Positions 7,494 to 32,000 of a stretch of DNA of 32,000 nucleotides are shown here, piece by piece. This DNA comes from Candidatus Saccharimonadota bacterium (lineage in GTDB: Bacteria > Patescibacteriota > Saccharimonadia > Saccharimonadales > UBA4665). Every line of letters starts with the position of its first letter. Positions within the stretch are counted from its first letter, which is position 1. The notes below the pieces were generated by a model. It had not been told where the DNA came from. It saw only the letters and a program-made list of their open reading frames with translations, and made no database searches. The stretch spans positions 390,001 to 422,000 of the forward strand of contig CP064992.1 in NCBI GenBank assembly GCA_016699935.1, written 5' to 3'. The position numbers and the translations under genes are program-made.

Positions 7494-8240
7494 ATGGCAA
7501 AATCAGGCGAAAAATCTTATTTTAAGGAAATAGGGGAAGCTGGCATCAACTATACGCTTGCGAAGCCATTTTCAGACCCCCCAAACTTAGGTTCGCTCTT
7601 ACATGATATTGCGGCGGTTTTTAGTCTATTGCCCCCTCCCCCAGCTCGTATTCTGGATTTGGGGTGTGGTTCTGGCTGGACTAGTGCCTTTTTTGCACGT
7701 GCTGGGTACGATGTAGTCGGAGTTGACATATCTCCTGAAGCCGTTGAAGCAGCATCAAAACATTACTTAGAGCTGCCTAATGTGAGCTTTGTAGTTGGTG
7801 ACTACGATACCCTGGCATATTCAGGGGAGTTTGACGCCGCAGTTTTTTTTGATTCATTACATCATGCAGAAGATGAAGTACTGGCTTTAAAGGCAGCTTT
7901 TGTGGCACTACGGCCAGGAGGAATTCTTGTAGCCTGCGAGCCTGGAGTTGGACATAGCAAAACAGCAAAGTCAATTGACGCAATGGAACGATACGGAGTC
8001 AATGAACGCGACATGCCACCAAAATTACTTCGGATCCAAATGCGCAAAGCTGGATTTAGCACAATTAAAACATATGCTTACCCGGCAATCTCTCATAGGG
8101 CTTTGTATTTCAATCGAACTGGCTGGATTGGAAGACTGAGAAACATTGCGATGGTACGGGCGTTAACCGTGGGGATGCTCGCAACTATACTCCGTCGAAA
8201 CCATGGGATTGTAGTGGCGCATAGAGAAGCTGATACGTAA
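7494..8240 (+). CDS. Class I SAM-dependent methyltransferase
   Basis: Intact 248-aa ORF. SAM motif I ILDLGCGSGW, followed by VVGVDIS and DAAVFFDSLHH. Confidence 0.8.
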   Translation: MAKSGEKSYFKEIGEAGINYTLAKPFSDPPNLGSLLHDIAAVFSLLPPPPARILDLGCGSGWTSAFFARAGYDVVGVDISPEAVEAASKHYLELPNVSFVVGDYDTLAYSGEFDAAVFFDSLHHAEDEVLALKAAFVALRPGGILVACEPGVGHSKTAKSIDAMERYGVNERDMPPKLLRIQMRKAGFSTIKTYAYPAISHRALYFNRTGWIGRLRNIAMVRALTVGMLATILRRNHGIVVAHREADT

Positions 8241-8921: not shown

Positions 8922-10754
8922 ATGAAAAGCTATTGATATCAGCTTCACTAATAGCCGTTGTAGTTGCATCAAATACGTTACTATTCACTTCTCATTCCCA
9001 AGCCGTTACGGCTAGCGATTGGAAGGCAGGTCTAATTATTGATGACGGCGTTTTTACTAATGCCAATGATATGTCTGTTGCAGATATCCAATCATTTTTG
9101 AATAAAAAGTGCCCAATTGTGATACTAACGGCACACAACCAGCAAGTGAATATGGTCGGTCGGATATAACTCATGCACAATATGCTGCACTTAAGGTTGG
9201 GCGGCACCGCCTTATGTGTGTCTACGCAACTTTTATGAAGTTCCAAAACCGCGCCTAGCCCAGGCATACCCGCAAATAACTATAGTGGCTCAATTCCTGT
9301 AGGTGCCATCAGCGCAGCGCAAATGATATGATGCTGCACAACAATACCGTATTAACCCCAAAGTTTTACTAGTTAAGCTTGGCACTGAATCTCACGGTCC
9401 CCTTACTTCCGATTCATGGCCGCTCAGTTGGCAATATACCTTTGCTATGGGAGCACACTGCCCAGATAGTGGCCCGGGTGGTAGCGCAAACTGTGACACG
9501 AACTATGCTGGTTTCTCGATTCAAATGCGCGAGGCGGCTTCACTCTTGCGCTGGTATCTCGATGGAATGACACAGTCATGGTGGCAATACAGAAAGCCCT
9601 ACCAGGTCAATAGTATCTTGTGGAAGCCGGTTGTATCTGGATGTGGATCCGGAAACGTTTACATTGAGTCGAAAGCAACGGCCGCACTGTATACGTACAC
9701 CCCATACCAACCAAATCAAGCGGCACTTAATAATATGTATGGCACGGGCGATGGTTGTAGCTCGTACGGCAACCGTAACTTCTGGCGTGTTTACAGCGAC
9801 TGGTTCGGCTCAACACGATATGGTAATTTAGTACGTACTAACGGTGGCGGTGTATACCTCATAGAAAATGGCTACAAGAGAGCCTTCCCGAGCGAAATTG
9901 TGTTCCTTAGTTATGCATATAACTGGTCTGGTGTCACCGTCATCAGCCCATCGGAGATGTCATCTATGCCCGATGGCGCAGTGGTACCATACAATATCCA
10001 CTTTAGAGATGGGCACCTCGTTAAATCTCAGTCTGGCGGTGTGTACGTAATAGACAATGGGTTCAAAAGGCCCTTCCCTAACGAGGGGTCTTCTACAGCT
10101 ATGGATATGGCTGGTCAGACGCTCAAGTTATTAGCAACGCTGAATTGAGTCTCATACCCGATGGTTCAGTGATGGCGTACAATGTCCACCTCAGAGATGG
10201 TCGTCTTATCAAATCGTCAAGTGGTGGAGTCTACCTAATTGAAAATGGCCTAAGGAGAGCATTTCCAAGTGAAACCGTATTCCTGAGCTACTCATACAAA
10301 TGGTCTGATGTACTAAATATTAGTTCCTCTGAGCTTTCACTCATACCTGATGGCGCTTATGACATACAATACCCATTTTAAAGATGGACGACATGTCAAA
10401 AATTCGTCGGGCGGTGTATACCAACTTGAAAACGGTGTTAAGCGAGCCTTCCCAAATGAGCTGACATTCCTCAGCTACTCATACAAATGGTCTGACGTAC
10501 TACCCATTAGCAACGCTGAATTGAATCTCATACCCGATGGTTCAGTGATGGGCTATAACGTCCATTTTAGAGATGGATATCTTGTCGCCTTCCCATCTGG
10601 CGGTATGTACGTAATAGACAATGGGTTCAAAAGGCCCTTCCCTAACGAGGGTGTATTCTTCAGCTATGGGTATAAGTTCTTAGACGCCCTGGTTATTAGC
10701 AAGTCTGAGCTGAATCTTATCCCTGATGGGGTGGCAATGCCCCCAAAAATCTAG
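8922..10754 (+). pseudogene. Secreted ~610-aa protein: signal peptide, conserved Cys-containing N-terminal domain (weakly glycan-hydrolase-like), five C-terminal tandem repeats; at least 7 frame breaks
   Basis: The stitched translation reads MK(K)LLISASLIAVVVASNTLLFTSHSQA|VTASDWKAGLIIDDGVFTNANDMSVADIQSFLNKKVPNCDTNGTQPASEYGRSDITHAQYAALKGWAAPPYVCLRNFYEVPKPRPSPGIPANNYSGSIPVGAISAAQMI.DAAQQYRINPKVLLVKLGTESHGPL...AMGAHCPDSGPGGSANCDTNYAGFSIQMREAA.... Breaks are at 8925-8928 (A run), 9104-9108 (A run), ~9193, ~9254, ~9328, 10085-10088 (G run) and ~10354. Confidence 0.75.
9825..10754 (+). repeat. Five tandem ~189-nt (63-aa) coding repeats
   Basis: Repeat unit: xLVKSxSGGVY[LV]I[ED]NGxKRxFPxExVFxSYxYxWSDVxxISxxELxLIPDGxVMxYNxHFRDG. 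Unit starts are near 9825, 10014, 10203, 10391 and 10580. Confidence 0.85.
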
Positions 10755-10783
10755 GTGCACTCCTTTTTCATGCAAATCAGTGT

Positions 10784-16130: not shown

Positions 16131-17080
16131 CTTTTTCGCCTTTTTACCGTATGCCCCAATTCTGCCAACTTCGAGGAAAAGCGCCATCTTTTGCTACTAT
16201 AGATTTCTCTCAGCTCTTTATTTAATGCCGATACTATTTGCTCAAGAGCGCCAATCTCTCATTTTACTGGCATACTCATTTTTGAGTACTTCATATTTGG
16301 CATCAATAATCTTTAGCTTTGAAGCCCTTTGATCTTGGATATCTAAAATATTTTTACAAAATTAAAGTTATTATCCCTTAACTCGTCAAACACCTCTTCG
16401 ACAGTCACTGCCCTTAGGGGAAATGTGAAATAATCACTAACTTTTGGCATATTATCTTTACTGGCAATGCAGATAATACTATTAATATGTATGCTTTTGG
16501 GAATCTTGTCGTAAGTTATGCCTTCAAGATCCTCATAGAAGAACTCAACATTTTTATACTTTGGGAAATCTTTTTCAGTAATACCTGTAAGTAAATGGTA
16601 TATATTACCTGGGGCTTCATTGTAGGGGACGTTGATACACAGCCTGTTCGTAAACTTATCTTCTTTTACGATAGCTAATCCATTTTTAATATGCTCTAGA
16701 ACATGTCTAGTCACAATATAAGAGTAGTCTTCCTTCTTTTTCAAGAATTTAATCGCATCGCAGATTTCATAGTCTATTTTTTTACTGTAATAGTTTCTTT
16801 TCGCCCACTCTAATGATTCCTCGGAAACATCGATGCTCTTTACAATATTTGTTTGTTCTATGTTAGCATAAGTGAACGAAGCATACCCTGTTCCAAAACC
16901 TAAATCCAATATAGATATATCTTTAAGATTAAGGGAAGCTACATCCTTCTTGATTATCTGCTTAAAAAAATGATGGGAGCTAAAATGCCTCACTAGTTCA
17001 CAATCATCGTGTGATAAAAAAGGGACCAATCTTTCTCCGTCATTAAAGATAGAATCCACATCAATATTTTCTTGACCCAT
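16127..17080 (-). pseudogene. Class I SAM-dependent methyltransferase with a ~70-aa C-terminal coiled-coil/basic tail; tail reachable only through two frame changes
   Basis: ORF 16343-17098 carries motif I ILDLGFGTGY. The likely start is ATG 17080 (TAATG overlap with the epimerase stop). After the TAG at 16343, the adjacent frame reads (K)NILDIQDQRASKLKIIDAKYEVLKNEYASK. The original frame then resumes as EIGALEQIVSALNKELREIYSSKRWRFSSKLAELGHTVKRRKR. It ends in a TGA (16127-16129) that overlaps the next ATG (16128-16130). Confidence 0.65.
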
Positions 17081-18183
17081 TAGACCCCCTTCTTCCATAC
17101 TGTCCGATTAATATACCCTGTGTAGCTCATGATTATCCTCACGCCCTTTTGTGAGACATTATCGACATCGTAGTCCTTTACTATAGGCATTCGAGTAGAT
17201 GTCACGATCTTAATTGAATCTAGGATAGTATCCTTATCGAGGCCAGTCATTATGAGCGTACCCTCGTCCATGCCCTCTGGTCGTTCGTGCGCCTGACGCA
17301 CGGTAATAGCTGGGAACCCTAACAGTGACGATTCCTCGGTAATGGTGCCACTGTCAGAGATAACACAGTAGGCATTCTGCTGGAGCTTAATATAATCCGC
17401 AAATCCAAGAGGTTTCATTGGCTGCACTAGTTCGTGCAGCTTGATGCCCTTGGCGTCAATAAGCTTCTGCGTCCTCGGGTGAACCGAGAAAATGACCGGC
17501 ATCTTATAGGTTTCGCAGATTGCGCTGATAGATTCAATAAGGTCAGTGAAGTTTTTCGCTATCCACATTCTCTTCACGGTGAGCGCTAAGTAAAAATATC
17601 CTTTCGGGCTTAAACCTAGCTGATCTAGCACATTACTATCGTCAATCGATTGTTTATGCTTGGATAGTACTTCTTTCATACTAGAACCAACTTTAATAAC
17701 TGTTTCTGGACGAATACCCTCTGCGACCAAATATCGCCTGGCATGTTCGGTTAGTGTCATATTAATATCACTTAAGTGATCCACCACCTTTCGGTTGAGC
17801 TCCTCGGGGACTCTTTGGTCAAAGCATCTATTGCCCGCCTCCATATGAAATACAGGTATTTTGTTTCTTTTTGCAGAAATGGATGCTAGGCAAGAATTTG
17901 TGTCGCCATACAAAAGTACGGCGTCTGGCCTATGTTCTTTAAATATCTTATCTGACTCAATAATCACGTTGCCTATTGTTTCAGCTGCATCTTTACCTGC
18001 GGCATTCATAAATATGTCTGGCTTTCTAATGCCCATACCATCGAAAAAGATTTCGTTCAGTTCATAGTCATAGTTCTGACCGGTGTGAACGAGCACGTGC
18101 TCGGTGTATATATCGAGTTCTGGGATGACGCATGCTAACTTGATAATCTCTGGCCTTGTACCAACTATTGTCATGACTTTCAT
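17080..18183 (-). CDS. UDP-N-acetylglucosamine 2-epimerase family (non-hydrolysing; FnlC/CapG/WbvD-like); ORF open but contains a locally scrambled 12-codon stretch
   Basis: 367-aa ORF: MKVMTIVGTRPEIIKL...VLLYGDTNS...ISDSGTITEESSLLGFPAITVRQAHERPEG. The family HREEN motif is present only in an alternative frame between 17552 and 17596 (see finding). Confidence 0.85.
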   Translation of the reverse strand: MKVMTIVGTRPEIIKLACVIPELDIYTEHVLVHTGQNYDYELNEIFFDGMGIRKPDIFMNAAGKDAAETIGNVIIESDKIFKEHRPDAVLLYGDTNSCLASISAKRNKIPVFHMEAGNRCFDQRVPEELNRKVVDHLSDINMTLTEHARRYLVAEGIRPETVIKVGSSMKEVLSKHKQSIDDSNVLDQLGLSPKGYFYLALTVKRMWIAKNFTDLIESISAICETYKMPVIFSVHPRTQKLIDAKGIKLHELVQPMKPLGFADYIKLQQNAYCVISDSGTITEESSLLGFPAITVRQAHERPEGMDEGTLIMTGLDKDTILDSIKIVTSTRMPIVKDYDVDNVSQKGVRIIMSYTGYINRTVWKKGV

Positions 18184-19030
18184 TTTGTTACCCTCTGACT
18201 TTCGCTATACAGGGACTCGTGTGCGGTAACCCAGTCAGCCATTTCTTCCACCATCTGAGCATAGCTCGGTATTTCAAAATCAAAATCTGTTGTCCTCATC
18301 AAGCTTTTATTGCTTACGTAATCACTTTTACGATTGATGATAATGTCTTTATTGAAACTCTCTTTGAACAAAGAAATAAGGCTAAATTTATCTATCGTTT
18401 CATTGTTCACCGCATGCCGGAGGCCGGTGAGATTATTGACGATTGCTTTTTCCATACATTTTGCAAATTGGAGTGTGGTCACCCCTGTCCAGATAACTTT
18501 GTCGAATCCATTGGTTTCTTTTTCTTGGTTCATAAACCACTGGAACAGACCAATTCCATTTTGGTTTACATCTGGGCCAACTATTGACGTACGGAGCGTT
18601 ACGCTCGACTCATTATTCGTTTCACCGAGGCCCTTAGACCGTCCATAAAAGTCATTTGCATTTCTAAAGCTGTTTTCGGTGTACTCGCCCGCCTTGCCGT
18701 CAAAGACGCAGTCGGTTGAAACATGCACAAATTTTGCGCCTTTAGCTCTACATATGCCATCGACATGGTGCGGCAGATAGCTATTGATGAGGACCGCCAG
18801 TGGCTTGTTGTCTTCTGCCACCTTGTTCAATATACCAATACAGTTAATGACGGCGTCCGGTTTAAAATCCTCAACAAATGCTTCAATATCGTTCATATTT
18901 TTGTGGCATCAAATATGTAATCGGCGCCATCGAACCGAGACGTCCCTCGTACGTCATGACCCTGTTCCTGGAAATACAAACGTACAATGTGGCCAAGCAT
19001 TCCATCAGAACCTAGTACAAGTAATCTCAT
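18180..19030 (-). pseudogene. RmlD-like NAD(P)-dependent sugar-nucleotide 4-reductase (WbvR/FnlB-role candidate), one frame break
   Basis: ATG 19030 gives MRLLVLGSDGMLGHIVRLYFQEQGHDVRGTSR (Rossmann GxxGxxG), then a stop. ORF 18180-18896 continues with DAVINCIG...VHVSTDCVFDG...Y..SK. ATGA overlaps at both ends (19027-19030 and 18180-18183). Confidence 0.75.
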
Positions 19031-20022
19031 GTTTCGACCTCCCCATTTTTATTAGGAGCTCGATTGTCCCCTTTTCGTCCAATCGTTCGGTAACATCGGA
19101 GCTATACGGTCGGTATTCTTTACTTCACCGCTACCCTCCGGGTAGAATGTATTGTAGTTCATGTCGCGGTTATCCATGGGGATTCTGAAGAAATTACCCA
19201 TGTCTTCGCTCTTTGAAACTTCTTCACTCGTGACCAACACCTCATGCGCTTTTCGCCATGCCTAGTGCCAATAATGACCGTTTTTGCATTTGACCCTTTA
19301 TATTTCTTTACTGCGGCCGCTAAGGTAGCGATGGTTGCTGCTGGCGCCTTCTGCACGAAAAAGTCACCCTGTTTGCCATGCTGAAATGCAAAATAACCAA
19401 ATCTACTGCGTCTGCTAGTGTCATCATAAATCGAGTCATGTTAGGGTCGGTTATGGTTAGTGGCTTGCCTTCTGAGATAAGTTTATAAAAAGAGGTATCA
19501 CTGAGCCACGTGAACCCATAACGTTTCCGTATCTCGTTAGGCAAATAGTCGTCTTTGCGCCCACGCCAAGCTGGCGAGCCTTGGCGACGATGATTTTCTC
19601 CATCATGGCTTTGCTGGTGCCCATCGCATTTATGGGGTAGGCCGCTTTGTCGGTACTGAGGCAAATTATCTTTTTACACCATGGTTTATGGCGGATGTGA
19701 GGACATTGTCTGTACCGATCACATTCGTCTTTACCGCTTCGAGTGGAAAGAATTCACAAGATGGTACTTGCTTTAGAGCGGCCGCATGAAATATATAATC
19801 AACGCCTTTCATCACAACATCAACACTGCTCATGTCTCGCACGTCGCCGATGTAGAATTTGAGCTTCGGGTTGTTATAATGCTTTCGCATGTCATCTTGC
19901 TTTTTCTCATCGCGCGAAAAGATTCGGATTTCACTAACGTCAGTATGTAAAAATCCTTTGAGCACTTCATTACCAAAAGAGCCCGTGCCACCCGTAATTA
20001 GTAATACTTTGTCTCTAAACAT
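19027..20022 (-). pseudogene. UDP-N-acetylglucosamine 4,6-dehydratase/5-epimerase (FnlA/CapE/WbjB/WbvB family), about 3-4 frame breaks
   Basis: N-terminal piece 19666-20022, MFRDKVLLITGGTGSFGNEVLKGFLHTDVSEIRIFSRDEKKQDDMRKHYNNPKLKFYIGDVRD...HAAALKQVPSCEFFPLEAVKTNVIGTDNVL, is near-consensus for this family. Pieces 19320-19664, 19159-19356 and 19052-19240 continue it. SD GAGGAG lies upstream. Confidence 0.85.
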
Positions 20023-20050: not shown

Positions 20051-21233
20051 TCAATTACCGCACTCTTCACCCTCTTTCGTACTTGTACTCAAGCCTCGAG
20101 GGGCCCCCAACGTCCACTTTCCATCATCGATTACTCTGAACGCAAATGCCATCTCTTTTATATCAATCACTCCTCCTGTTTTACTCATCACCGCTGCCGA
20201 TGCCGAATATCTCCCGGGTCCAATGTCTAACTTTATAGTACAGGTAAAATCAGCATGAGTCAGCCCTGTGCAATCGTCGAGTTACTACCAAATACATAGA
20301 CACCATCACTCCGTGTGATGCCAGTCCCCATTATGTGCTTTGGTCGGGTCGAATTTTCCTTCCAAGATACGTGAAGTGATAATTCTTCGGATGGCAGGTA
20401 AACCTCTTTCACTGGGAGTTTGATAATAAACTGTGAGTCCTTGGGTTTCTTAGTGTCCTTGGCATTTTCAGTGCAGTTTCTTGAGCGTCGTCTTTCTTTG
20501 TGTTCATGTCCGAATACTGCTCGGCGACACTATCCACAGAGCCTATGTGCACTATCTTTCCATCATCTATGAGCATTGCTCTGGTACAAAGATTTCGTAC
20601 GGTGCTCATATCGTGCGTCACGAGTACTACCGTTTGCTTGGTTCTCCTGTATTCCTCAAATATTCTGAGGCACTTTTGTTGGAACGCTTCGTCGCCGACC
20701 GCGAGGACCTCGTCGAAGATGAGTATGTCGTTTTTGGCTTTGATGGCTATGGAAAATGCAAGCCGCACCTGCATGCCAGAAGAATAGTTCTTGAGCTTCT
20801 TATCCATATGCTCGTGGAGTTCAGCAAAATCTACAATTTCATCGTACATTCCGTCTACGACCTTACGCGGATAACCAAGCAGTGAGGCGCTTAGGTACAC
20901 ATTGTCTTTCCCGCTGAGTTCGGGGTTGAACCCAACACCAAGTTCTATAAAAGGAGTAAGATTCCCATTGATTTCGACCGCACCACTATCTGGCGCATAT
21001 ACACCAGCGAGTATTTTTAGCAGCGTGCTTTTGCCGCTACCATTTCGGCCAACTATACCAAAGAACTCGCCTTTCTTAACCTCAAAGTCAATTCCATCCA
21101 ACACTTTTTGGCGCTGTTTTATGTGCTTTTTGCCAGCATTTACCAACAGCTGTTTTATGGACGTGTTCTTACTTTCTGCAATCTCAAAATTTGTATGTAG
21201 ATTATGTACTTTAACTGCTATATCGTCAGTCAT
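20051..21233 (-). pseudogene. wzt: Polysaccharide ABC exporter ATP-binding protein with C-terminal carbohydrate-binding-like domain (Wzt type), 2-3 frame breaks in the C-terminal third
   Basis: ORF 20409-21233 holds Walker A GRNGSGKST, signature YSSGMQVRL and Walker B ILIFDE. Downstream frames read ENAKDTKKPKDSQFIIKLPVKEVYLPSEELSLHVSWKENSTRPKHIMGTGITRSDGVYVFGSNSTIAQG, then LTHADFTCTIKLDIGPGRYSASAAVMSKTGGVIDIKEMAFAFRVIDDGK. The stitched length is ~390 aa. Confidence 0.78.
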
Positions 21234-22025
21234 CTATATATTCTCCGCAAACAATCTTGCTTGACTCTTGAAGTAGATACTCGACAGCACTACCGATATG
21301 GCAACTATAGCAATGGGGATCAGGCCGAACCATAACGGGGCTATCTGCCACACATTAATAGCATCTGGAGTAACTAGCATATACCGCGCATCCTGAATAA
21401 TTTGCGTCATGGGATTAAGGAAAAAGTACTGGCGATACTGTTCTCCAACATACGTTAGTGGGTAGAGAATTGGGGTTGCATAAAATGCAGCCTGTAGGCC
21501 AACTTCCCAGATGTATGTAATATCTCGGAACTTTACATACAGTGCCGACAAGAAGAATGCCAAAGCTGTTGAAAAATAAACAATTCCGCAAATGGAAGTG
21601 GCAACAGTAGCCAAAGCCAAGTTGGACTGACTCCATTGATAAATGCAAAAAGAATAACTACTACTAGGTTGATTCCCAGATTGATTAGTGCTGACGCAGA
21701 AGAGCTCAAAACCGTCAGGTAGCGAGGAATTGCTATTTTTCTAATCAAATCGCCCTTACCCACAACCGCACTCATACCAATAATCGTTGACTCCGCAAAG
21801 AAGTTCCAAATCACGATTCCCAGAAGAAGGTAAACGGGATAGTGTGGTACGCCCTTGCCTATCTTAAAAATGTAAGTAAAAACAACGTACAGGATCACAA
21901 ATAGAAATAGCGGGCGGAGCACCGACCACAGATATCCAAGTGCTGAGCTCTGGTATCTTACCTTAAAATCAGCACTAAACCATTTCTCTCAATATTGAGC
22001 GATTTTTTATCGACAGATATCTCAT
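21234..22025 (-). pseudogene. wzm: Polysaccharide ABC exporter permease (ABC-2 type, Wzm/TagG-like), at least 2 frame breaks
   Basis: ATG 22025 gives MRYLSIKNRSILREMV, then a shift into SADFKVRYQSSALGYLWSVLRPLFLFVILYVVF... (piece 21533-21922), then piece 21234-21620. Multi-TM throughout. It abuts the wzt start (21233). Confidence 0.75.
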
Positions 22026-24257: not shown

Positions 24258-25415
24258 ATGAAAAAACTAGCAGTATTAAAATCCTTTTTGATGCCGGGCC
24301 GTTGGTCAATGGCAACAAGACTGGTGTTGGCAGAACGACCGAGGGGTTAGTTTTGGCGCTCGCTAGTGAGTTTCCCGAACAAATTGAATTGGTCGGTCAC
24401 TATTTTGATTTCATGAACCGCAAGAAGAATATTGAAGTCCCTGTAGCTTCAAATATTCGCTACAGACGCACAGTATTTATACCAGGTAAGGTCTTCAATA
24501 TGCTGAGGCGACTTGGCGTTTGGATACCTTTCGAGCTACTCGCAAAAGAACGAGGAGACTTTCATATTTTCCCTAGCTTTATTGGCTGGCCTAGTCTATT
24601 CCGCACACCTAGCGCACCCTTTATACACGACATAACATATATTGACTACCCAGAATATGTTAATGGCCCAGCTCAATTTGATTTAAAAACCATCATACCC
24701 AGAACAGTTCGCAGAGCGGCTTTTATTATCACTAATTCCGAGTCTTCTAAACAAGGAATATTACGCGAGTACCCTACGGCAAGGAAGCCTATCATTGTCG
24801 AACATTTGCCCGCTGTAGGCGCTGTGTTTATTTCTAAAAAGAAGCTGCTACGTGCTTACAAAGGCTGGGAGTCACGGGCAAATACCTGTTGTTTTTCGGA
24901 ACTTTGGAGCCACGCAAAAACCTGGTTGGGCTTATCGACGCATACCAAAAGCTAAAACCCATCGTACGCAACCAATACGCTCTGGTAATTGGTGGTGGTA
25001 AAGGCTGGAAGGATGATGAAATTATAAGTAGCCTCAACCGGCTCAGGGCGTCTGGCGCAACAATCTTTCAGACGGGATTTGTCAGCGACAAAGAGCGAGC
25101 AGCGCTATATATGGGCGCAACATTGTATGTGATGCCCTCACATTATGAAGGTTTTGGCATGCAACTTCTTGAGGGTATGACCTATGGTGTTCCCATGCTC
25201 GTGAGTGACATACCTGTGCTGCGCGAGGTCGCAGGAGATGCCGCAGCTTACTGCGGGACAGACCCCTCATCTATCGCTGTCGCACTTGAAAATCTGCTCA
25301 GTACTCCTGACCGGCGCGAAAAACTAGTCCAGGCGGGCAAAAAGCGGTTGCACAGTTTTTCTTGGAAAATGTTGCACGTGACATATACGCTAACATATTG
25401 GAGCACGTTCAATGA
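24258..25415 (+). pseudogene. GT4-family glycosyltransferase, three frame breaks
   Basis: MKKLAVLK then a shift (~24285, T run) into ILFDAGPLVNGNKTGVGRTTEGL (piece 24302-24955). A second shift (~24880) leads into LFFGTLEPRKNL...MPSHYEGFGMQLLEGMTYGVPMLVSD. A third shift (~25364) leads into ENVARDIYANILEHVQ. The stop TGA 25413-25415 overlaps the next ATG. Confidence 0.8.
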
Positions 25416-26501
25416 GCCGTATTGTCATCGACGCGCGCGAGTCTGGCACGAGCACTGGGCGATATGTCGACAAGCTCATCGAAAATCTCCACGCCCTACA
25501 GCCATCTCATTCATTTACGGTGCTGACAAAATCCCCCGTCTTGCCGCGCTGCAAAAACTTGCGCCCAGTTTTGACATAGTTCCGTCAGACATAAAAGAGT
25601 TTACCTTTGCCGAACAACTAGCCTTGAAGCGACAGATTCAAACCCTACGCCCCGATCTTGTTCACTTTACAATAGTGCAGCAACCGGTTTTTTACCGGGG
25701 AGTCGCCGTAACAACCATGCACGATCTAACGACCCTCCGTTTTCGTAACCCCGCAAAGAATACAGCGGTGTTTTGGGCCAAACAGCAGGTTTACAAATGG
25801 GTCAACAAGCGAGTTGCACGTAAATCTGTTGCTGTTATAACGCCGAGTGATTTTGTGAAGCAAGATGTTGCGCGGTACTGTAGTATTGCGCCAAGCAAAA
25901 TAACGGTTACCCACGAAGCAGCGGAAGCTATTTCAGATGCGGCGGAGTCAGTTGAGCTTCTAGCTGGCAAAGTATTCCTGATGTACACAGGAAGGCCAAC
26001 GCCACACAAAAATCTGGGGAGGTTGATAGATACATTTGCGGTGCTGCAAAAACATACCCTGAGCTTGTGTTAGTTTTGGCTGGGAAGAAAGATGCGAACT
26101 ATGCGCGGCATGAGGAACGTGTGCAGCGTTACGGCATACAAAATGTGGTATTTACCGGTTTTGTCAGCGAGGGCAGCTGCGCTGGCTGTATGAAAACTGT
26201 GCAGCGTATGTTTTCCCTTCATTAAGCGAGGGTTTGGGTTGCCGGGACTCGAAGCCATGGTGCACGGTGCGCCCGTAGTAAGTAGTGATGCAACGTGTTT
26301 ACCCGAAGTATATGGCGACGCAGCGCTGTATTTTGACCCGCTAGACGTTACCGACATGGCCGCAAAGATAGCTAGGTGCTAGACGACGAAACGCTACGAA
26401 GCAATTTGATACAAAAGGGCAGAGAACAAGCCACAAAATACTCCTGGCGCCGCACCGCCGAACAAACCCTGGAAATCTACGAGAAAGCCCTCGGGGATTA
26501 G
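25412..26501 (+). pseudogene. GT4-family glycosyltransferase, about five frame breaks
   Basis: MSRIVIDARESGTSTGRYVDKLIENL..., then LMYTGRPTPHKNL, then (stitched) [79 protein letters not shown]. Breaks near 25520, 26048-26052 (A5), 26171, 26233 and 26368 are all deletion-type. Confidence 0.8.
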
Positions 26502-27085: not shown

Positions 27086-30000
27086 TATTTGTTGTTACGA
27101 CGAAAAACTACTACCAAAACCGTAAACAGTGAGTCAATGTCACCGCAGGCAAAACCCAGACCTTATTTCCTTTGTGCAACAATGTTCTAGCAAGTGGCGC
27201 TGATAGCTAGGTCTGAATTGCGGGCTGCTTGCAGCACTCAGTACCTGCGGCAACGTTTCTGTGCTGTTTGTATTAATAATATTAACGTTCTCTGTTTCTA
27301 GGTTATTGACAGCTGTACCGTATTCCTTTGCGATTTATTTAAGCGCTATATTCATTTGTTTGCTGCTAACCGTGCTCAGGACTTGAGCTGATGTACTTTG
27401 CTTTTCCTCTGGTTTTCTCTGAGGAACCTTCGAACCAACAGCGGGTATGTTTGGGGCAGGGGCAGCAGTAGGGTGTTTTTGAGGCTTGAAAAATATGAGT
27501 CTTCCTCTGTGCTGGTACTTACTGGATCAATCAGCAGCGGGTCGAAAGAGGTAATTCTGGCAGGACTTCTGGAGTTATGCTCCCTGCATCGGCGATGACA
27601 CCATCACACGCATCATCTATCCCATCCTTATCTTCGTCTTTACCACTTTGCGGGAACGCGACACGCAAGAATCTGACGCGTTGGGCATGCCATCACCATC
27701 ATAATCATTTTCCTCTGCTGCGACATACACCATTTGTCGTAAATCAATACTCTTACCACTCGTGTCAGTTGTGTAGATATCTAGTCTGTGGAAGCCAGCT
27801 TCGATATCTGCTGGAACATTAAAACAAAAGGAGCATTAACGTCGTAGACCCCTTCAAAAAGTGTCGTTGGGTCTGAGTGCAAAACACCTTGGACTGGGGT
27901 TTGAGTTGCTTTTGGCACGCTTGTTGTTAGAGATATTGCTGGCGTACTTACCACCATCTGACCAAAACAGGTGCTTCTCTGTCCGCTTCTTGCCAGACCA
28001 CACTCTCTCGGCAGGAGTCCTGTGATGGCGCTTTGGCTTTGTTATTTGAACGAGTTGCTTGTATCGAGTGTCGGTTTATTGTTCAGTTTAGGAGCACCCT
28101 TTGTGTCGGCGTAGTAAGGTTGGTTGTTTTCGACACAATATTCTGGCTAAGTAGACGATGTCCGAATGTAGTAGGATGGTACGACTCCTGGCCAATAAGC
28201 TTGAAGGGTCCGCTATCATTGCCCTTTGTCACGCCGTTCATTCCCGCCTTGCCTTTAGGCGCTTCACACAGTCTGTAGCCATTGAGCGCATTTTCCGCAT
28301 CAACATAGTACGCTCCAGCCTCAGCCGCTGCACGTTTAATGACGCTATTTAAATAAGATATTAACTGCGACCTAAATTTCACTTCACTAGAATTCAGTTT
28401 TACATTTGCGCCACAATCACCGTCAACTTTGGCAATTTGTGGATAGCCGACCACGTAGAGGCGACCGCCACTTTCTCAACACACTCGTATACGTTTTCAC
28501 GAGTCGCTCATACTGCCCCAGTATTTGTTCCATGAGCTTGTTTACGGTCTTCATAGTACTGATAGCACGTTCCGCTTGAGGCGGTTGGGACGCATGTCGC
28601 GATTATCTTTGCAAAATGTATGTCATTTCCACCAACCGAAAGGAGCACGATGCGAGGCTTGTACTCGCGAGCAAAGACAACCTGATTGGCGTAGCCGGGA
28701 GAGAAAGATTTAGTATGCTCTGCTGATTTCTTCTCTTCCAGTTTGTATCGAATATTTATCAGCTACCTGTCCTCCGTATTTCAACTCATTTTCAGGCTTA
28801 ATCTTTTCGTCAAAACACTTGTAACGGTCACGTCGTATGTCTTCGCGCCGGAGCAGGCGACGGAGTGGCCGTGTTGGAAGGCTTGGGCGCCTACTCGGTA
28901 GGGGTAGGAGAACCACGAAAGGTGGCATTTGTTCTGCTTTGTGTCGGTACCGGCAAAGTACGTCCCGGCAGCGCCTTCGCCGGAGATATAGGAGTCACCC
29001 ATGCCTAGTACGCTTATGTATTCGCGGGTGGTGGACGCGGGTACGCGGAGGCTGTAGCGGGCAACGCTATAGGCTGATTGTCCGGTGCGGTCGTATATGG
29101 TGTCGAATGTCAGGGTGTCGTCACTGGTAAATCGAACCCGGCGAGGATATTCAGCCGTAGGCAGCACATTGTGTATGCCACGAGTATTCCCCGTGCGATA
29201 TTCGCCCGTCCAATAGTCTTTGTAGTCACAGCCGTTGTTCTTGGTCGGTTCTAGGAAGTTCGGGTATTGGTCACGACAGGTTTGCGTATCATAGACACGT
29301 AGAGAGGGACGTGTACTATTTCCGCTTGGCACCGAAAACGTCGCCGCTATAAATCGGCCATCATCGCTAATAGCGAGGTTATTTGTGCGGCGGTAACCGC
29401 CGTAGCTATACGTTACAGCATCCCATGAAATAAGTTTTCCTTTGAGGGTTGAAAGGTTGTATTGATAGATGCCCTTCCCGTTTACTATAGCCGCGAACCA
29501 CTCTCCGTTAGCAGAATAGGCAATGTCGGACGTACTAATATTGAGGTAGTTAGTACTGTCTGGGGTTTTGAGAATAGTTGTGGGTTCACCACGGTATTCG
29601 TACACTTTTTTCGTAGGCAGGCCGTAGTATTCAGCGTACTTTAGCTGTGAGGCGTCGTAGCTGCCAATTCTAAGCATAATGCCGCTTGTCCAGCTGCGCG
29701 GAGAAACTGCCGTAATAAGCATCCCCGGGTGACCTGGGACGCTTGGTAAGGCATAGCCACCGTAAAACGGATCGTACTCAAAGAGCCCTTTGGGCCGTCA
29801 ATTAGCTTGCCGCCCACAATCGTACCGAGCGGCGTTTTGTATGCGCAGGCGTCTATGGTGCCTGAGCCATTCGGGATCTGCGTCGGTGTGCAATCTTGGC
29901 TAAGGCTTAGTGGCTCTTGGTTGGCAGGAAGTTCGGCCACCTTTTTCAATGATGGGCTCAGTAGCACTCAGCCAAGCCGTCCGTGGCGCGGCAGCCCACA

Positions 30001-30222: not shown

Positions 30223-30689
30223 TTACGCGGCGGGTTTGAGGACGATGTGGCGGTCGCGGCCTTCGCCTTCGGAGTCGCTTATGAGCCCTGCGTCTGAAGC
30301 AACCCGGTGCACGGTGCGGCGGTCAGCGGCGTTCATGGGCTGAACCTCAAATGGCTCACCCGTTTCCTTCACCTTCTTCACCCACTCTTCGGCAGTCTCC
30401 GCGAGCCGATCGGCGCGCTGTTTTTGTACTCGGCAACATCGACGTTCACCCGACACACGGCGTAGTTTTGGTTCTTCAAGGCACTACTAACCAAAAACTG
30501 CATGGAGCGCATAGTTTCACCGCGCTGGCCAATCAAAAATCCATTGAGGTGGGTTGAGGGGATATTGAGCTCAATAACTTCATTGTCTTCTGTGGTCGCG
30601 TACACATCTGTGTTTAGGCCGTAAAACGACAACAAATCTTCTAGGTACTTCTTGGCATACTGGATAGCCGCTTCAACATCATTATTCAT
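30223..30689 (-). pseudogene. jag: Jag/KhpB RNA-binding protein (KH + R3H domains), one frame break
   Basis: Pieces 30378-30689 (LNIPSTHLNGFLIGQRGETMRSMQFLV) and 30223-30456 (QPMNAADRRTVHRVASDAGLISDSEGEGRDRHIVLKP, the R3H domain) join at the coding-strand A5 run 30421-30425 as a 1-nt deletion. Conserved position downstream of yidC. Confidence 0.8.
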
Positions 30690-30691
30690 GG

Positions 30692-31648
30692 TTACCTCCG
30701 TTTCTTCTTAGACTTTTTGGAGGATTTTGTATGTGTTTGTTTTGTGGTTGTAGTGACAATTTCTGCTTCAGGGGTAGATGAGTATGATATTTTGCTGCCG
30801 CGTTCTGTTTTGAGTGGCTTGTCGGATTCGGCGGCTTCGACGAGCTGTTCGGCATCATCTTCGAGCGCTTTCTTCTGCTGGAAGTACGCAACGACTCCGC
30901 CCGTAAACCAGTACAGGCTCAGTGCGGCTGCCAGGTTAATCGTAAAGAAGAACACCATAAATGGGATGATGTACTGCATGCTGCGGCCAACGGCAGCACT
31001 CACTTCGGCCTGGTCGGCTTGCTTGCCGTCACCGGCCGCTTTCAGGATATGACGAAGTTTCCGCGCCTCTTTGTCTGCCGGCATAAGCTGCCGGCTCGTG
31101 AGAAACTGTATGCCCGCACTCAAGACAACGAGAATGAGCGCCGGAATATACGTCCCTTGGGCATTTAATGCCGCCCTCGAGAGGTCAATAACACCAAACA
31201 GTGAGTTATCGAAAGCTTTGATGTTTTCTGCTAGATGCTGCATCCATGGGAGGTTCTGCAGTGGCCCGTATGCGAACTGTACAATTTGGTTGGGGTCTTT
31301 TATGACTTTTATGAGACCCATGTACAGTCCAATCAGCACAATCATTTGAACGATCAGTGTCGGAAAGGCTCCAAATGGGTTAACGCCGCGCTCTTTGTAC
31401 AGCTCCATCATCATCTGGCCTTCGCGTTGTCGGTCGCCTTTTGCTTCCTTCTTGATGCGCTTGAGTTCTGGTTGGAGCTGCCGGGTTATTTTTGTCTGCC
31501 TCAGCTGCTTCTTGACAAGTGGCCACATCAATAACCTGATCACGATAGTAAATAAAATGATCGCCAAACCAAAGTTATGCCCTGGTATCAGTGCGTAAAT
31601 AAGCACGAGCAAATTAAAGATGGGTTGGACGACGAAATCCGTAAACAT
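30692..31648 (-). CDS. yidC: Membrane protein insertase YidC (short, monoderm type, Lys-rich C-terminal tail)
   Basis: Intact 318-aa ORF. IILFTIVIRLLMWPL..KQ....QP....I......D.......ELYKERGVNPFG is the YidC/Oxa1 core. The C-terminus KSSKKSKKKRR is a typical ribosome-binding tail. rnpA lies immediately upstream. Confidence 0.92.
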   Translation of the reverse strand: MFTDFVVQPIFNLLVLIYALIPGHNFGLAIILFTIVIRLLMWPLVKKQLRQTKITRQLQPELKRIKKEAKGDRQREGQMMMELYKERGVNPFGAFPTLIVQMIVLIGLYMGLIKVIKDPNQIVQFAYGPLQNLPWMQHLAENIKAFDNSLFGVIDLSRAALNAQGTYIPALILVVLSAGIQFLTSRQLMPADKEARKLRHILKAAGDGKQADQAEVSAAVGRSMQYIIPFMVFFFTINLAAALSLYWFTGGVVAYFQQKKALEDDAEQLVEAAESDKPLKTERGSKISYSSTPEAEIVTTTTKQTHTKSSKKSKKKRR

Positions 31649-31649
31649 A

Positions 31650-32000
31650 CTACTCCTTTTGTCCTTCTACTATACCACGTTCCTCTCGCGTGAATCGCCC
31701 CGGCAGTGCTTTTGACAACACCCCGTGGAGTTCGTTTGTAAGCTTGCGTGGTGTCAGTGTCGCGAGAGTGACATCGTACACGGTGACTATACAGTCGTAA
31801 CCTCCTAGAGCGCCCTGATACTGCGTCCGGACAAGTTCGTACAGGCGGCGCCGAATGCGGTTGCGAATAACCGCCGATTTGCTTACCTTACGACTAACAA
31901 CAATGGCAATACGGTATCCGGGCTCGTCCCTCTTGCTGTAGCGGAACGACAAAAACCTACCCCGTACTTGTTTGCCGCGGTACGCCAACCGTACACCCCT
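31650..32000 (-). CDS. rnpA: Ribonuclease P protein component (5' end probably outside window)
   Basis: RGKQVRGRFLSFRY...IAIVVSRKVSKSAVIRNRIRRRLYELVR contains the RnpA RNR motif. The frame stays open up to the window edge (..RGVRLAYRG). It is followed by yidC, the canonical rnpA-yidC-jag order. Confidence 0.85.
   Translation of the reverse strand, partial: RGVRLAYRGKQVRGRFLSFRYSKRDEPGYRIAIVVSRKVSKSAVIRNRIRRRLYELVRTQYQGALGGYDCIVTVYDVTLATLTPRKLTNELHGVLSKALPGRFTREERGIVEGQKE

Follow-up and report, generated by a model that had tools for sequence, protein, structure and literature searches.

A Wzt glycan-binding domain probably obscured by homopolymer errors in a Saccharibacteria surface-glycan locus

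Geobacillus stearothermophilus NRS 2004/3a has a Wzt that serves an S-layer glycan, which carries a 2-O-methyl-rhamnose cap and involves the methyltransferase-glycosyltransferase (GT) WsaE. Saccharibacteria are ultra-small epibionts without LPS. In systems whose Wzt ATPase bears a C-terminal carbohydrate-binding domain (CBD), the undecaprenyl-PP-linked polymer is capped at its non-reducing end by a terminating enzyme, with methyl, phosphomethyl or Kdo as the cap (PMC9445017). The CBDs of Wzt form a strand-swapped jelly-roll dimer, whose binding of the cap is required for export (PMC9445017). Our literature search for Wzt in Saccharibacteria found, in the library searched, no paper linking the two, and a broader search returned nothing specific. 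Here we analysed a 32,000-nt stretch of a Candidatus Saccharimonadota genome (contig CP064992.1 of assembly GCA_016699935.1, positions 390,001-422,000; hereafter the window) in which a wzt gene lies on the minus strand. The region downstream of its ATPase ORF is very probably the CBD of a normal single-polypeptide Wzt, part of a Wzm/Wzt exporter of lipid-linked surface glycan, whose 389-codon ORF has been broken by consensus errors in the assembly.

The ABC ATPase ORF runs from 21233 to 20409 (274 aa) and ends, as an earlier note on this DNA had it, at 20409, with a TGA stop at 20411-20409 inside the linker. The database call for this gene (P0042) is likewise 274 aa long and lacks PF14524, in line with the warning that a simple ORF caller would miss the domain. 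When intact homologues were searched against the window by tblastn, they aligned colinearly through frames -1, -3 and -2 (total E ~1e-165), with segments in frame -1 from 21233 to ~20466, in frame -3 from ~20454 to 20266 and in frame -2 from 20269 to ~20120. The same note had read a beta-rich continuation in two frames, and a three-frame translation of the minus strand from 20520 to 20000 does place the peptides FIIKLPVKEVYLPSEELSLHVSWKENS…GITRSDGVYVFGSNS in frame -3 and FTCTIKLDIGPGRYSASAAVMSKTGGVIDIKEMAFAFRVIDDG in frame -2; what that reading missed is a third frame change further on. The first frame change is a one-base deficit at ~20454-20468 according to frameshift-aware alignment, three-frame translation and alignment of the homologues' linkers, and we infer its exact base since the linker is variable. 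It is this change that creates the false stop at 20409-20411. The repair of the second change could conceivably sit elsewhere within 20266-20277. The third is seen as a one-base gap in the window at ~20118-20120 in a DNA alignment with locus L001, an intact counterpart of this region in the Saccharibacteria metagenome-assembled genome (MAG) GCA_964536265.1.

Repair of the third frame change restores a conserved C-terminal strand, VDVGGPSRLEYKYERG, and with it the conserved last strand VDVGGPSRLEYKY, and leads to the true stop, a TGA at 20069-20067. Aligned homologues finish with …DDGRVDVGGxSRLxYxYEEDK, the family's end being …DDG[KR]xDVGGxSRLxYxY with DVGGxSRLxYxY common to all, which VDVGGPSRLEYKYERG matches. 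Owing to the third change at ~20120, the tail proposed earlier, KWTLGAPRGLSTSTKEGEECGN (KWTLGAPRGL…CGN, stopping at 20051), thus lies in the wrong frame, and the stitched length of ~394 aa becomes 389 aa. All three changes are net one-base deficits at short homopolymers, and with these frame changes the assembly splits wzt into four frame segments and has no uninterrupted ORF covering both the nucleotide-binding domain (NBD) and the CBD. With one base restored at each of the three runs, wzt encodes 389 aa and a stop, laid out as an NBD, a linker of ~30 aa and a Wzt_C CBD (Table 1).

Table 1. Coordinates of wzt, its segments and frame changes, and the neighbouring genes in the window.
Feature	Position	Strand	Basis or remark
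wzt, full coding region (reconstructed)	20067..21233	-	Colinear tblastn, frameshift-aware alignment, homologue identity
Nucleotide-binding domain, frame -1	20466..21233	-	Pfam ABC_tran, PDB matches, motifs
Wzt_C CBD, corrected residues ~280-389	20067..20400	-	Pfam, profile against PDB, AF2, Foldseek
Frame change 1 (-1 to -3)	20465..20468	-	A4 in linker, inferred A5
Frame change 2 (-3 to -2)	20264..20266	-	G3 inside CBD, inferred G4, reads …SNSTIAQGLTHADF…
Frame change 3 (-2 to -1)	20118..20120	-	A3, inferred A4
wzm, ABC-2 permease partner, directly upstream of wzt	21234..21985	-	tblastn of L001 Wzm, Pfam
fnlA-, fnlB- and fnlC-like genes, immediately downstream of wzt	17080..20022	-	NCBIfam FnlA TIGR04130, rmlD-like, wecB; synteny with L001
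FnlA-like UDP-GlcNAc 4,6-dehydratase/5-epimerase	19024-20022	-	At least 5 pieces, six one-base gaps
Apparently intact fnlC/wecB-like ORF	17080-18183	-	Compensating deficits at 17553-17596
SAM methyltransferase, 251-aa ORF and probable tail	16190..17098 (ORF 16343-17098)	-	Pfam methyltransferase families

The NBD translation contains the expected motifs (Walker A GRNGSGKST, signature YSSGM, Walker B ILIFDE, H-loop VTHD), matches Pfam ABC_tran (E 2e-20, 74 bits) and is 88-90% identical to orthologues by tblastn. In a sequence search of the PDB the best match was Aquifex aeolicus Wzt (8DKU/7K2T, E 1e-61), with an alignment that extends into the CBD, and the runners-up for the NBD were TagH/TarH and mycobacterial Wzt, so that the nearest NBDs are those of glycan exporters and not of importers or drug pumps. 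In NCBIfam, TagH and galactan Wzt came out best for wzt, but none of these best matches reached its equivalog cut-off. Over 98% of its length, the repaired protein shares 78-82% identity with more than 40 intact Saccharibacteria proteins of 385-395 aa that carry Wzt_C, with full-length matches down to E 1e-196. PF14524 is present in more than 100 of the 120 homologues listed, nearly all of the intact ones of 385-395 aa have precomputed PF00005 and PF14524 annotations, and those that are named come from Candidatus Saccharibacteria as 'polysaccharide ABC transporter ATP-binding protein'. Judged by these similarities, the wzt product appears to be an ordinary single-chain member of a well-populated Saccharibacteria family that Pfam already annotates. 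Among the related Saccharibacteria Wzt loci (L006-L019), about half match the NBD alone (residues 4-243), so exporters with and without a CBD on Wzt both occur in the phylum.

The proposed test of the extension against the Wzt C-terminal family gave a positive answer. Pfam Wzt_C (PF14524) scores 33.2-36.4 bits on the stitched and corrected sequences (E 6e-9 at 36.4 bits), above the gathering cut-off of 30.4, and intact homologues score at the same level (33.7-37.1 bits). A profile built from 28 sequences of the C-terminal region matched the A. aeolicus CBD (8DKY, 6O14) at E 2.5e-12 over the whole domain, and against the whole PDB nothing else was significant, the next match being at 0.07. The predicted structure agreed with the anticipated jelly-roll as well. 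Of the AlphaFold models, all of monomers, that of the full-length protein has a pLDDT of 81.7, and that of the last 128 residues (pLDDT 82.4) has eight β-strands arranged as a β-sandwich/jelly-roll. In Foldseek searches the full-length model matched full-length WzmWzt best (E 6e-33), above NBD-only entries, and the top 12 PDB matches of the CBD model were all Wzt CBDs, from A. aeolicus, E. coli O9a (2R5O) and R. terrigena O12 (5HNO), at E 2e-5 to 3e-4 and TM 0.56-0.68, with generic Ig-like folds appearing only from rank 13. The rmsd of these CBD superpositions is high (4-7 Å), as expected from strand-swapped crystal dimers. These sequence comparisons and models indicate that the extension downstream of the ATPase ORF is the C-terminal glycan-binding domain of Wzt. 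In the profile alignment, Trp362, the Aquifex residue that lids the 3-O-methyl group of the cap (PMC9445017), falls opposite an Ile, so the lid residue is not conserved and the nature of any cap is not readable from the sequence.

The gene order around wzt is syntenic with L001. Residues 3-249 of the L001 Wzm (PF01061) match the window by tblastn over two frames (73-87% identity); a one-base deficit at ~21575, next to a T run, splits wzm, and Pfam ABC2_membrane was found on its C-terminal fragment. Downstream, the three fnl-like genes look, from their family matches, like a pathway to a UDP-2-acetamido-6-deoxy-L-hexose precursor of the FucNAc type. After repair their products are 92% (FnlA, against GCA_964536265.1), 85% (FnlB) and 92% (FnlC) identical to orthologues at the amino acid level. 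One one-base deficit lies in fnlB, and the fnlC ORF hides a deficit of one base at a T5 run and another of two bases at an A run 40 nt on. As these compensate each other, ~14 fnlC codons are probably mistranslated with the ORF unbroken, and open ORFs in this contig are not to be assumed correct.

Further downstream of wzt lie a SAM methyltransferase gene and genes for multi-domain GT2/GT4 glycosyltransferases. Elsewhere the window encodes an initiating polyprenyl-phosphate sugar-phosphate transferase, GlmS, GlmM, more GT4s and a second methyltransferase; the two SAM methyltransferases (7494-8240 and 16343-17098) have no specific family assignment. The methyltransferase ORF near wzt probably extends, across two frame changes, into a tail resembling a coiled coil, …LNKELREIYSSKRWRF… (…ILDIQDQRASKLKIIDAKYEVLKNEY… / …LEQIVSALNKELREIYSSKRWRFSSKLAEL), whose motif IYSSKRW is shared with the C-terminus of the co-positioned 344-aa methyltransferase of L001 (AIYSSKRWKYAEKLDKV). 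Apart from this short C-terminal motif the two enzymes have no significant overall similarity and their catalytic parts are not detectably similar, so that the test of the window enzyme as an orthologue of its positional counterpart was negative save for the motif. Scans of the window for tRNAs and Rfam families found none.

Several other genes of the window were noted in passing. On the plus strand, a 394-aa ORF at 24889-26073 is an artefactual fusion in which residues 1-153 come from one GT4 gene (its C-terminal GT1 domain) and residues 235-342 from the next (its N-terminal domain), the stop of the first gene having been removed by a one-base deficit at ~25365. Also on the plus strand, a fragmented gene at 9300-10760 (frames 3, 2, 3) has internal repeat modules of ~100 aa and no Pfam match; its product resembles parts of Saccharibacteria proteins of 587-839 aa (loci L004, L014 and L018) and a repeat protein at the edge of locus L002, and may be a surface protein. 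On the minus strand, ORFs of 313 and 123 aa at 28083-29722 lack Pfam matches and seem to be parts of a single split protein that bears an SGNH-hydrolase motif of the GDS(Y) type (VLGMGDSYISGEG) and, C-terminally, …SYHPTTFGH. A rnpA-yidC-jag cluster occupies the right end of the window (30226-31976, minus strand), which indicates that the window adjoins dnaA and the origin of replication, as L001 does.

Frame changes across the window were surveyed with protein-to-DNA alignments that allow for frameshifts, using orthologues from L001, L003 and other loci, and were located in jag (one homopolymer deficit, at an A run at 30423), two GT4 genes, wzm, wzt, fnlA (six), fnlB and the large GTs. In the well-conserved genes, pairwise DNA alignment resolved every change to a single-base gap in the window beside an A, T or G run, for instance GCG-AAAAGCG against GCGAAAAAGCG and ATA-TTTTTAC against TTATTTTTTGC. 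The well-placed events, about 17, are all one-base deficits beside homopolymers, with no gains, larger indels or nonsense codons among them, and not one of the 5,294 repaired codons is an in-frame stop; in divergent GTs, a few events of less certain placement are +1, not -1. One-directional deletions linked to homopolymers are typical of long-read consensus errors. The events are dense at 10-26 kb (at least 20, in nearly every gene), against a single one, at ~2410, in the first 8 kb, where the genes for GlmS (611 aa) and GlmM (448 aa) are unbroken. The glycan island at 8-28 kb has a GC content of 38-47%, against ~50% in its flanks. Homopolymer density differs modestly between 0-8 and 10-26 kb, which accounts only partly for the uneven spread, and the local excess of errors may well stem from lower read depth where an island varies between strains. 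Homopolymer-length spectra gave no discrimination between the window and 14 related Saccharibacteria loci from short-read assemblies, and two metagenome scans with patterns tolerating an extra base at frame changes 3 and 1 found no independent copy from the same species.

Could the frameshifts instead be real, with the wzm-wzt-fnl-GT island decaying in a reduced-genome epibiont and the CBD a pseudogene remnant? Homopolymer slippage is the main natural source of frameshifts, and real decay of the island would give the same uneven pattern, with events concentrated in the low-GC 10-26 kb and only one in the flanking 0-8 kb. However, the confident events are uniformly one-base deficits and leave no stop in any repaired codon, while neutral decay long enough for six indels per kb would have added many substitutions and stops as well. 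The fnlA gene is the clearest single piece of evidence that the frame changes would be consensus errors: six indels within 1 kb, no stops and 92% identity are unlike natural decay, and fnlB and fnlC keep similarly high identities. Further, jag is hit too, outside the island and beside yidC and rnpA, and the still-open fnlC holds its compensating deficits. Stop-free repaired frames, identities of 85-92% and one-base deficits thus make genuine pseudogenisation improbable in our judgement. As the deficit pattern is unlike decay and fits long-read consensus errors, we consider it highly likely, from the alignments, that wzt is intact in the living organism and that its split is an assembly artefact. 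The domain would then be 'hidden' through single bases dropped in homopolymer runs locus-wide, with no biological cause.

The split might also be functional, the ATPase and the CBD being separate proteins acting in trans, or being joined by programmed frameshifting or transcriptional slippage. The first frame change does fall in the inter-domain linker, and the part of PMC9445017 that cites work on E. coli O9a has a separately expressed CBD restoring export by a Wzt that lacks its own. Yet here the CBD is itself cut twice more, inside the β-sandwich and before the last strand, so that no frame encodes a foldable domain. The runs are of 3-4 bases, far below the length of known slippage sites, no homologue is split likewise (close relatives are all single ORFs), and unrelated neighbouring genes have identical defects. 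We reject this explanation as scarcely credible. There is also a very small chance that an intact extension is a generic Ig-like or β-sandwich appendage with some other role, such as dimerisation only, and reads no cap. The Foldseek E-values of the isolated domain are modest (1e-5 to 1e-4) with Ig-like folds close behind, the Pfam score is only ~6 bits over the cut-off, and the cap-lid Trp of Aquifex is not kept. Against this, the sole significant PDB profile matches are Wzt CBDs, the position, length and C-terminal strand are the same as in solved CBDs, and conservation of CBD pockets between cap types is known to be no more than moderate (PMC9445017).

If the extension is a Wzt CBD in an intact gene, as we favour, its working can be sketched by analogy with the described transporters. 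Two Wzt subunits would dimerise through their NBDs and by exchange of the last β-strand of their CBDs, and the CBD would bind the completed undecaprenyl-PP-linked polymer at its modified non-reducing end. Binding of the cap would tie chain termination to entry of the polymer into the Wzm channel and to its ATP-driven export. Of the components of a CBD-type system, the window encodes every one except a proven terminator, and by the same analogy it is a reasonable inference that the exported glycan would be capped and bound by the Wzt CBD. The methyltransferase at the fnl end of the locus is, from its predicted features, the best candidate for a terminating or capping enzyme, possibly WbdD-like with a coiled-coil ruler. 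A fuller proposal, to which we give slightly less than an even chance, is that Saccharibacteria make a length-controlled, capped and possibly O-methylated glycan of the FucNAc type, whose export is proof-read by the CBD-type Wzt and whose chain is ended by the coiled-coil methyltransferase as a WbdD-like terminator or ruler.

For annotation, the glycan island has ~1-2 single-base homopolymer deficits per kb, and as a result ORF callers cut short or split most island genes, and domains like Wzt_C are lost. Claims on gene content or pseudogenes in this genome first need re-polishing or a frameshift-aware annotation. With this locus, a family already well represented in Saccharibacteria gains a further CBD-type Wzm/Wzt exporter, and by analogy the locus supports, but does not prove, the idea that monoderm epibionts couple glycan capping to export as do E. 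coli O9a, Aquifex and Geobacillus. Were the capped-glycan proposal true, the low-GC island, variable between strains, would determine host-epibiont or phage interactions in the manner of a serotype.

Among known systems, the TagH/TarH exporters and mycobacterial Wzt/RfbE (7DD0, 9CFL, 6JBH, 9QFX) resemble the window protein closely in the NBD (E 1e-42 to 1e-46) but are without Wzt_C, the C-terminal extension of TagH being of another kind. The likeness to G. stearothermophilus, taken from its description only, lies in a monoderm cell, a CBD-type Wzt for a non-LPS glycan and a methyltransferase together with multi-domain GTs, whereas the sugar chemistry differs. With Raoultella terrigena and Klebsiella O12, whose Wzt CBD (5HNO, 5HNP) recognises a β-Kdo cap, the window domain shares its fold (E 3e-4 to 1e-3, TM ~0.6) at 13-14% identity, and no WbbB-like Kdo-transferase gene was recognised in the window. 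The C-terminal domain of E. coli O9a Wzt (2R5O) likewise agrees in fold (Foldseek E 2e-4, TM 0.56-0.58) at 15% identity. As in the WbdD system of that strain, a SAM methyltransferase with a possible coiled-coil tail adjoins the polymerising GTs, but no kinase domain was found, and the methyltransferase is a putative terminator.

The closest overall likeness is to the A. aeolicus Wzm-Wzt O-antigen transporter (7K2T, 8DKU, 8DL0; CBD 6O14, 8DKY). Its Wzt has the same one-chain order of NBD, linker and CBD in ~390-400 aa, is 43% identical in the NBD with an alignment reaching the CBD, and heads the structural matches of the full-length model as well as those of the CBD model; in both cases an ABC-2 permease gene adjoins. 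The two differ in that CBD identity is only 16-20% and in that the window locus is predicted to make FucNAc-type precursors, not Rha/Man. Since a Saccharibacteria host is expected to have no LPS, the polymer exported here would not be an O antigen.
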